From Phoronis australis (lineage: Eukaryota; Animalia; Phoronida): 59,097 bases of DNA. The stretch covers positions 163,866 to 222,962 of the forward strand of contig NMRA01000082.1 of NCBI GenBank assembly GCA_002633005.1. The letters are read 5' to 3'. Within the stretch, counting starts at the first letter, position 1, and the number at the start of each line of letters is the position of its first letter. Shown here in pieces: positions 18,601 through 21,600 of this stretch. The notes under the pieces were generated by a model, which saw only the letters and a program-made list of their open reading frames with translations, had not been told where the DNA came from and ran no database searches. A program made the position numbers and the translations under genes.

Positions 18601-21600
18601 AAATTTTGCTGACCTTTGCTGCAACGTCCTGACCTTTTCTTTTCGTGTTACCGCTTTACAGCCAGAGCGACTGTCAGGCGGACGGTATAACCTACAGTCA
18701 GATATCTGGAGTCTAGGGCTGTCTCTGGTCGAAATGGCCGTGGGTCGGTACCCGATCCCGCCGCCAGACCCAAATGAAGTCACAAAGGCATTTGGCGTCA
18801 ACAATTCTAGCGAACACATGGAGGCAGCACGGCTTGGCAAACCACTGAGTGGTGAGTCTTCTTTGTTGTATATTGTATTATATAGTATTGTGTTGTATTG
18901 TACTGGGTGACCCAAAAACAAAATGAGTTCACGAAATTTTGTCCGAAATTGTGAAACTTTTGCAAACTCGCTCGTTTCGTTTGCGCTTTGTGGTAAGGTG
19001 TTTGGCATTAGTTGATTGCAGGGGTCGTCCCGGATTTTGAGAACCAGTTTGACACTTATTATTCAGTGTAGGAAACTGGTCCTCAAAATACATGACCTCT
19101 GCAAGTGTGATTCATAGATTCAAGTTAAAGTTTACGAAATTTGAAGAAAATAGAATTGGCCTTAATCTGAATTTTTATTGGTTCGTTTTTTCCGGTTGCC
19201 TTTCATGGTAGCCTGTGCTGCCAAGACAAACATCTGTCTCTGGTTACTTAGAGTGATTTTTCTTGATTTTTTGGTTCGACATTGATGTGGCATCTTTTTA
19301 CTAAGTACTCTTGTAACTTCTCTTTTGATTAGCGTGAGCTAACGTATCAAGTGTGATTGATGCGCGTACAGTTAAAAAGTGTCAGTCATGCAAATGTTTC
19401 CGTGACAACCTTTTTTTCAACCTCGTACTATACTCTGTACATTGAGGGCTGTTCATCATACTGTCAAATATCATGCCTGGACAAGTTTTGAATAATTCAT
19501 TTTTCGTTCCCTCATATTTTCTGCGCATCTTCCCTTTGTCTCGTTTACACGGAAACCATCGTTGTAAACGAGTGCCATGTCATCTGTATTAGGATCATAA
19601 CAAACAATGCCTGTGTGTTTGGATGTTTCAATGTTTCACTACGTTGTTAATTATCATGCTTCATGTGTTACTGCTACTGCTGTTTGCCATGTATCCTGTG
19701 TGTCATAGTATAATGGACGTGCTGGAGATTTTAATGCAGGTCCTTCAATGACTTCGATGCCTCGATGAAAATTGCTTAAAACTCGCACGAAATTCCCATC
19801 GTCGAACCCAAACATTGCCCTCTAATAATTGAAAATTTCCCCTCAAGGTTAGAATCGCTTCTGCAAAACGTTTTGTTTACTTGAAGCTTTGGGGTGAGGC
19901 AGCCAGGAGGGGATTTTAGTCCCCTCAACCAAACAATTCTCTCAGCAGGCACACGCACCTTTCCGCTCAGGTGAGCGAAGGCCCTGTAATGAACGTTTCT
20001 CATTAACTGTTATGTATGGCATATTGTATGTGTGTGGTATATTGTATGTATGGTATATTGTATGTAGGGTATATTGTATGTATGGTATATTGTATCGAAC
20101 TTGAATTAAAGCTGCTACAAACTTCAGTTATAAATAAAACTTGTTTCAGCTTATTCTTTTTTAAGATCTATGAGCTTGGAAAGGGTTCATTATTGCTTGA
20201 GTGGCCGTGCAGGTTGCATAAAATGAGCCACTGAGTCGAGTAGGTTGTATAAATTGAGCCGCTGAGTCAAGCAGGTTGCATTAAGTGAGCCACTGAGTCG
20301 AGCCCAGCTTATTGACCATGTTCTGAAGTAAAAACTTTCTCCTTTTCCAAGCCCACAAATCGCTTTAGTAAAGGACAATTTGATTTCAATTTTACAGCGG
20401 TAAGTGATCAAACTGTAAGGTTGTTTGTTCGGGTAATGGTCTGATATAACGTGCCCGAATTTTGAGAACCAGTTTTTTCCACTAAATAACAGGCATCAAA
20501 CTGGTTCTCAAAATACGGGCACGTTTTATTACACTATTGCCGTTTGGCTGACTCAAGGCCAGTCTGTGGCAGCTCAATCAGGGAGACACTTTGTTTTTTA
20601 AACTTGGGATAAGGCTTTCAATTTGCCATCTTGGAATTCATGACGGCTGCGTCTTACATTTAAAATGGCTGCCTATCCTAGGAGATAACCTAGTTTCTCT
20701 CAAGTTCACTCTTCCGCCTACAGCTCTGCCAGGAGGTTTCGAGCAAATCACCGGCGACGGACCCCTGCCGATGGCGATATTTGAACTCTTAGAGTACATT
20801 GTCAACGAGGTATCATTAAACGTGGGCTGTGCATCACGTGATCTGCCTGAGTTGTCTCCCCTGTCTAGGGTGCCCTTACCGTTGCCAAATCCGTTGGCTG
20901 TCGTTGCACTGCAAACACTGTGCAAGACACGTCCGATGAATCACCACTCAACTGTGTGTTCGATTAAGTCTTCTTGCGGCAATGGGAAACGCTAAGCGCA
21001 CCCACTCTTATCTTCCTCTTTCTCTTTTCTTGTCCGTTCATTTATCATTTCTATTTGTTGTTAGTTTCAGTTTCAAGCCAAGCGGATTCCAACAGGCATG
21101 TTTCACAGAAAGGCTCCCCCTTTTCAGTCCCATCATGCAGCTTGAGAAACTCATTAACCCCAAAATCTATAAATTCCTCTGGGCCAGTTTTTTCTGTCCT
21201 CTTATACTGTGCCGGGGTACGTGCGCAAGCACAGTAACAAAACAATTTTATCAATTTTGCTCGCACAGACAAGTCACACGGGAGTTCACTGACACCACCT
21301 GGCAGAATCTGCAGCTTGCATATTGTCACCCTACTATGCCTGTTATTGTTTTATGCTTTAGGCAATCGAAACAGCTTTGTACCTGACGTCCCGAGATCCA
21401 TGGCAATATTCGAACTGCTTGACTACATAGTCAATGAAGTAAGTTTCTCACTCTCTTTCGTATTTGGCAGAGACGGTCTCGTCAGAATGGTGTTGTCATG
21501 GCCGTTGATTATTGTTAAGAATCCTCGAGTGTTCGGGGTGTACAACTCTGAAGTAGGCATTGCCCGTGTACAAGTAAATGTTTTCTACGTTCTTTGTACA

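Follow-up and report, generated by a model that had tools for sequence, protein, structure and literature searches.

The MEK1/2 gene described here carries exon 8 in two tandem copies, 8A and 8B, and both are spliced between exons 7 and 9, with 8B dominant. With moderate confidence, we propose that splicing in either copy yields a full-length kinase and that the swap likely retunes the engagement of MEK by RAF/KSR and by basophilic kinases. The gene is complete, with 11 exon positions, and occupies positions 6601-26876 of the window, that is, the whole 59,097-nt stretch of Phoronis australis DNA that was analyzed. Among PDB hits, exon 7 matched MEK1 at E 4e-17 vs 7e-5 or worse for MKK4/7, identifying the gene as MEK1/2, and the encoded protein was 72% identical to a nemertean MEK over 360 columns. 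The catalytic motifs are intact, including the Gly-rich loop, HRD across exons 5-6, DFG, the two activation-loop serines (SMANS), and the alphaF-alphaG insert. The exons are as follows.

6601..6671, + strand: exon 1 (predicted), basic N-terminal docking segment; ATG, GT donor, frame kept, N-terminus like that of relatives; without RNA check
7682..7910, + strand: exon 2, negative regulatory helix and Gly-rich loop; by homology only
12701..12847, + strand: exon 3; by homology only
13649..13726, + strand: exon 4; by homology only
15671..15722, + strand: exon 5; by homology only
16554..16678, + strand: exon 6, DFG and activation loop with both serines; by homology only
18662..18851, + strand: exon 7, common to both isoforms, with alphaF and the beginning of the MEK insert, phase-1 donor; by PDB matches and RNA donor use
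20724..20809, + strand: exon 8A, derived, conserved, minor alternative with a 16-residue acidic/hydrophobic insert end and the alphaG helix; by RNA joints and sequence comparison
21362..21438, + strand: exon 8B, ancestral-type, major alternative with an R-N-S-F site and Arg two residues before the alphaG Met; by RNA joints and sequence comparison
24616..24677, + strand: exon 9, shared; by RNA joints to 8A and to 8B
25445..25490, + strand: exon 10; by the 9-10 RNA joint
26787..26876, + strand: exon 11 up to the stop codon (predicted); by homology only

Exons 8A and 8B are 86 and 77 nt long, respectively, are both flanked by AG and GT, run from phase 1 to phase 0, and are separated by an intron of 552 nt. 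The initial annotation had described them as paralogous exons, and its coordinates, lengths, and phases all agree with ours. It had also reported a shared exon end with many synonymous differences, and indeed 30 of 39 nt are identical over the last 13 codons, with a single residue difference, E or D. Splicing in script gave an open frame for each isoform, 391 aa long when 8A is used and 388 aa long when 8B is used. Inclusion of both copies or of neither breaks the frame, as had been predicted, with a stop at 348 or 303 aa located 116 or 88 nt upstream of the last junction. By the usual rule, stops so far before the last junction mark a transcript for decay.

The use of the two exons was followed in three stranded raw-read RNA-seq runs with the same species label (X1, X2, and X3), about 18-19% of each being read, and junctions were listed from 3 reads with 2 starts upward. 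The exon 7-8B joint was found in 22, 13, and 42 reads of X1, X2, and X3, the 8B-9 joint in 31, 16, and 30, and the 9-10 joint in 30, 19, and 49. For 8A, the joint to exon 7 was found in 0, 0, and 6 reads and that to exon 9 in 0, 1, and 3. Exon 8A is the minor form: it accounts for 10 of the 164 junction reads, 9 from X3 and none from X1. A second, narrower read mapping via loose ends agreed: in X3, 6 reads linked 8A to exon 7 and 4 linked it to exon 9. A fourth run, consisting of contigs, gave no coverage of either exon. The proposal of a duplicated, probably mutually exclusive, and expressed pair is supported by the presence of all four joints, those of 8A resting on 6 and 4 reads. Routine co-inclusion would have spoken against it; no 8A-8B joint and no 7-9 (skipping) joint was listed in the three runs at the 3-read threshold, below which, or through decay of the frame-shifted products, such joints could be hidden, and none of 197 protein cores belonged to a protein holding the helix core twice. 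When 8A use in X3 was compared with that in X1 and X2 together, Fisher's test gave p = 0.037 on the exon 7 side and p = 0.30 on the exon 9 side; pooling gave p = 0.009, but this counts non-independent reads. The use of 8A looks sample-dependent, on thin read numbers. A single fixed difference was seen inside 8B (21394 A->C, synonymous).

Exon 8 encodes the segment before alphaG and the alphaG helix itself, which docks RAF/KSR and ERK. Its last 12 codons correspond to human A309-E320, the helix aligned to alphaG. This helix has been reported to bind the ERK F-site through A309, I310, F311, L314, and V318, and its residues E312, D315, and E320 to contact N274/K276 of ERK1 (bioRxiv 10.64898/2026.03.13.710243). 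The alphaG helix also centers the face-to-face dimers of MEK with B-Raf and KSR1 (PMC9068654; PMC11257983). Simulations show MEK1 D315 paired with R671 of B-Raf and MEK1 residues 305-307 in contact with the activation loop of B-Raf; the same report used this 305-307 contact to explain why Raf-1 binding was abolished by deleting MEK1 270-307 and not 265-301 (PMC9068654). The Arg of 8B occupies the 306 position, one off human R305, and its contact with B-Raf is transferred by analogy from simulation. An AlphaFold model of an 8B isoform (pLDDT 70) showed a disordered insert (residues 319-333) followed by a helix at 337-346, and that of an oyster 8A isoform (mean pLDDT 43) was uninformative on the insert. 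The initial annotation had tied the exon to the insert end and to Raf coupling, which is only part of the picture: the alphaG docking helix makes up most of the exon, and of the two copies it is 8A that is derived and constrained, two points that the annotation had missed. It had also placed the S298 equivalent in exon 8, which was incorrect. In MEK1 of the human type, S298 is the Ser of GRPLS, 10 residues upstream of M308, and directly behind this Ser four genomic read-through predictions depart from the coding frame (GRPLS-CEW). Thus, the S298 position forms the final complete codon of exon 7, which both isoforms share; this position is Ser in the window and K, R, or P in most relatives.

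The two exon types were compared in 15 paired taxa, comprising 12 named genera, the window, and two loci. The hydrophobic docking face of the helix is identical in 8A and 8B. The residue two before the Met is Leu (14 taxa) or Met (1) in 8A and Arg (13) in 8B, and the D315 equivalent is Glu in 8A (14) and Asp in 8B (13), with the 8B of Mytilus and Elysia carrying E. Among 197 stored helix cores, this position was Glu in 37 of 38 8A-type proteins and Asp in 150 of 159 others. The insert of 8A contains neither Arg nor Lys in 15/15 taxa and is 16 residues long in 10/15; Ser or Thr stands directly before G-D/N-D in 13/15, and an in-phase acceptor giving an 86-nt exon was found in 36 of 37 loci. Mean identity of the insert was 0.61 for 8A vs 0.38 for 8B (105 pairs). 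Identity by codon position in the 5' half of 8A was 0.78/0.81/0.39 (13 loci), so third positions have diverged while first and second positions were kept, which indicates constraint on the protein. Exon 8B resembles the MEKs of outgroups. Judged from these comparisons, 8B is the ancestral-type, variable exon and 8A the derived, more conserved one.

Several variants of this region were also observed. Three oyster MEK isoforms (P0007, P0126, and P0130) carry an optional 6-residue insertion between exon 7 and either exon 8, which is probably an 18-nt microexon. Degenerate partial copies of the 8A 5' part lie upstream of the intact 8A at L001:5137-5280 and L004:869-910 (gene orientation) in the 8A-only clade described below, and proteins of Pomacea and Babylonia (P0281, P0160) contain an in-frame tandem repeat of the same part; the 5' half of 8A seems prone to re-duplication. 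Two further loci (L014 and L027) hold an 8A-type sequence with an altered 5' part joined directly to exons 9-11, and each is either a contig derived from a transcript or a processed retrocopy.

Paired isoforms, one of each exon type, were found among the database proteins of Lingula, Liolophura, Octopus, Haliotis, Pomacea, Babylonia, Bradybaena, Magallana, Mizuhopecten, and Mya. Elysia and Mytilus have both types too, with one unnamed partner each assigned by likeness. Both forms are known from chiton, bivalve, gastropod, cephalopod, and Lingula proteins, and from annelid-like genomic loci. Helobdella has an 8A-type model, the nemertean Tubulanus has 8B only in its two models, and the MEK model of Bugula was uninformative on exon type. 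A metagenome scan with an 8A-specific pattern, by design blind to 8B-only lineages, returned 37 loci; the order 8A then 8B was seen in the window and in L010, L018, and L020. A tree was built from 46 MEKs after removal of exon 8; in it, the window paired with Lingula (96/84) on a long branch, which makes a brachiopod-like lophotrochozoan likely, though not certain. In a separate, quick tree from partial rows, L020, L011, and a large clade of loci fell on the annelid side of a split with support 99, without resolution inside it. This large, worm-like clade has 8A only at the locus: 8 of its loci cover the stretch from exon 7 to exon 9 and 15 that from 8A to exon 9, and these contain no second helix exon, indicating that 8B was lost there. 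Annelid-side proteins P0209, P0014, P0017, P0191, P0194, and P0197 carry 8B-type exons, so this loss is confined to part of the annelid-like set. Among the cluster members listed, 68 outgroup proteins (arthropods, priapulid, sharks, starfish) included 56 that hold the helix, and none of the 56 was an 8A-type MEK. The pair is thus present in molluscs, a brachiopod, and annelid-like loci and absent from the sampled outgroups; on this distribution, the duplication of exon 8 predates the split of molluscs, brachiopods, and annelids. This split dates to more than 500 million years ago.

The two exons differ in their splice donors. The 8A donor of the window, GAG/GTATCA, is weak, and that of 8B, GTAAGT, is consensus. 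G at +5 is missing from the 8A donor in 5/5 loci of two-exon lineages (window, L010, L018, L020, and L031, the last bivalve-like and ending before any 8B) and present in 22/22 distinct loci of the 8A-only clade, which represent one clade and one event and are not independent. This count left out two truncated loci, two spliced ones, and seven duplicates. Across these loci, a weak 8A donor goes with the presence of 8B, and a strong one with the lineage that retained 8A alone. Candidate RNA pairing was also found around the pair, with the following elements in the window.

20849..20863, + strand: candidate pairing element in the intron, 40 nt downstream of the 8A donor (core TTGTCTCCC), with a similar sequence present in two bivalve-like loci
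24478..24487, + strand: candidate partner for the element at 20849, located about 130 nt upstream of exon 9, whose pairing would loop out 8B; 10-bp helix, -15.4 kcal/mol, 9/300 shuffles as good
20581..20587, + strand: weaker upstream candidate partner, whose pairing would loop out 8A; 28/300 shuffles as good, not significant

Downstream of the 8A donor, the motif TTGYCTCC occurs in the window (+43), L031 (+58), and L010 (+111); no other locus has it at that place, and it is absent in L018 and L020. The window-L031 alignment at the motif was better than 1996 of 2000 shuffles, for a pair chosen by eye, and the window-L010 match was not significant (280/2000 shuffles). In both L010 and L031, the element pairs over 15 bp with a site deeper in the intron (0/300 shuffles each), a layout that differs from that of the window, and in L010 the second site has an alternative partner beyond 8B (6/300 shuffles). 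In either layout, the candidate pairing could loop out 8B. Other arrangements were considered and rejected. Taken as a second partner for 24478, an ATATTG-led site at 21320-21332 proved unremarkable when scored as an ungapped helix. Steric block via a branch point near the 8A donor was judged unlikely, the only CT[AG]AC lying 480 nt from the donor in the 552-nt intron. Long inverted repeats in the introns, which are high-copy elements read from both strands, were set aside. Short inverted-repeat high-copy elements with RNA from both strands occupy 20432-20541, 19027-19096, 23543-23865, and 24335-24580 of the window, and one such element sits 180 nt upstream of 8A.

Under the reading that we favor, 8B would give the default, ancestral-type MEK, open to PAK/PKA-type priming, and 8A would give a regulated isoform that still docks RAF, KSR, and ERK, with altered loop contacts and no basophilic priming input. 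Both isoforms would be active with the same partners, differing in the pre-alphaG loop contact, one acidic helix residue, and one priming site. Exclusivity is likely kept by the weak 8A donor together with decay of the frame-shifted both/neither products, and RNA pairing that loops out 8B possibly adds to it. However, the change from D to E is conservative and not absolute, the basophilic R-x-S-[FY] site is present in the 8B of 8/15 taxa and missing in 7/15, and the RNA pairing is marginal in the window (9/300). In addition, one worm-like clade has 8A alone at the locus, so 8A can serve as a general MEK.

The basophilic serine of 8B might itself be the sole functional difference, making the pair a splicing stand-in for MEK1 vs MEK2, an explanation that we regard as unlikely. 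It would fit the R-x-S-[FY] site of 8B set against the lack of Arg and Lys in every 8A insert, and PAK phosphorylation of the insert is reported to promote MEK1 activation (PMC3398258). However, the pair persists in the seven taxa whose 8B lacks the site, and mere loss of a site does not explain why 8A is conserved above 8B. The comparison with MEK1/MEK2, also drawn in the initial annotation, is a poor fit as well: S298 maps to exon 7, and the MEK1-only sites, given as T286/T292, lie upstream of exon 8 (PMC3398258). The serine contrast of that annotation stands in part: the 8A of the window has no serine and many 8B exons have the basophilic site, but 8A has one Thr and the site is far from universal in 8B. 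A basophilic site present in one isoform survives as a weaker form of the earlier idea.

Exon 8A might instead represent a gain, its fixed insert (Cys-Pro-Gly, acidic, aromatic, then Thr-Gly-Asp-Gly-Pro-Leu-Pro) forming a scaffold or localization binding motif that 8B lacks; we consider this quite unlikely. The fixed length and protein-level constraint, in a region predicted to be disordered in the 8B model, agree with such a motif. So does an [FWY]-x-x-[LIV] pattern in the 8A insert of 8/15 taxa, which we take to be an Atg8-binding core. However, the pattern fails in 7/15 taxa, the Cys is replaced by Leu in the window and Lingula, and the putative motif would be compatible with the reading of two active MEKs.

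It is very improbable that 8A serves chiefly to turn MEK down, with a weak donor that lets transcripts run on into the intron or end early, so that an inactive, truncated kinase results. Some database models do end shortly after 8A (P0138, P0141, P0148, P0163, P0270, and P0286), and in X3 a depth of 1-2 runs on past the 8A donor, but similar low depth occurs in other introns, 8A-9 joints were seen, full-length 8A proteins are annotated in many genera, and 8A is the sole exon 8 in one clade. The chance that 8A is a young or degenerating duplicate, spliced in by leakage and without function, is negligible: its low use, with no reads in X1, would fit, but 8A was found in RNA and is conserved across three phyla, neither untranscribed nor unconserved, and the retention of its first and second codon positions as third positions diverged already contradicts that explanation.

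The alternative exon of MAPK14 presumably begins with its alphaG helix. Like the MEK pair, the duplicated exons of p38-alpha (MAPK14) and JNK1 (MAPK8) are homologous internal C-lobe exons of a MAPK-pathway kinase, and both genes appear in a human catalogue of tandem exon duplication substitutions, where the duplications are dated to Vertebrata and Chordata (PMC8373072). By contrast, the MEK pair belongs to the MAP2K tier, is lophotrochozoan, and also swaps an insert of different length; a search of the supplement of that catalogue gave 0 hits for a MAP2K entry (PMC8373072). Vertebrate MEK1 and MEK2 are likewise two MEK forms differing in the proline-rich insert, but they are two genes, distinguished by T286/T292 (PMC3398258). 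MEK1b is likewise a second MEK obtained from one gene by splicing, but through a 26-residue deletion in subdomain 5 and no exon swap; in the available text of a review of MAPK-cascade splicing, MEK1b is the only form given for MEK1 (PMC8699841). In the serpent and Dscam clusters of Drosophila, an element between alternative exons is likewise able to pair upstream or downstream (PMC4691838). In MEK, unlike these, the candidate element is short and shared by three loci, its downstream partner is marginal, and its upstream one is not significant. No published description of the MEK exon pair was found in full-text searches of mainly open-access literature. RefSeq-type automatic annotations already hold both isoforms as unnamed X1/X2 models. 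The pair is real, ancient, and apparently undescribed in the literature.

Outside the MEK gene, a 376-codon open frame at 40558-41688 (+) has a degenerate kinase-like look and a weak match to STK16 (E 0.084), with no Pfam hit at 0.01, and is a possible pseudokinase. Two tandem paralogous open frames at 45016-45918 and 48167-49057 (-) share 41% identity; both have a likely membrane-spanning stretch, and their cytoplasmic tails belong to no Pfam family. Assembly gaps lie at 17262-17625, 35924-35996, and 36642, the first inside a tandem repeat in MEK intron 6.

The preferred reading, in which one gene makes two active MEKs, bears on several lines of work. The natural swap of two residues and an insert could be used to probe the disputed role of MEK 301-307 and D315 in RAF binding. 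The 8A-only clade offers a clean case of an alternative exon turned constitutive, with donor strengthening, after its partner exon was lost. More tentatively, the pair may have served since the mollusc/brachiopod/annelid ancestor as a tissue- or stage-controlled switch that acts via conserved RNA pairing and exchanges the RAF/KSR/ERK docking module, so that neurons or the embryonic organizer, for instance, would have a second MEK with separate inputs and a separate binding partner; we hold this to be possible but doubtful. ERK is reached only through MEK, and its signalling holds a central place in research on Aplysia memory. ERK signalling has also been described as the ancestral organizer signal of spiral-cleaving embryos (PMC9050690). 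With a second MEK isoform kept for so long, studies of the organizer and of memory would have handled two MEKs unknowingly.
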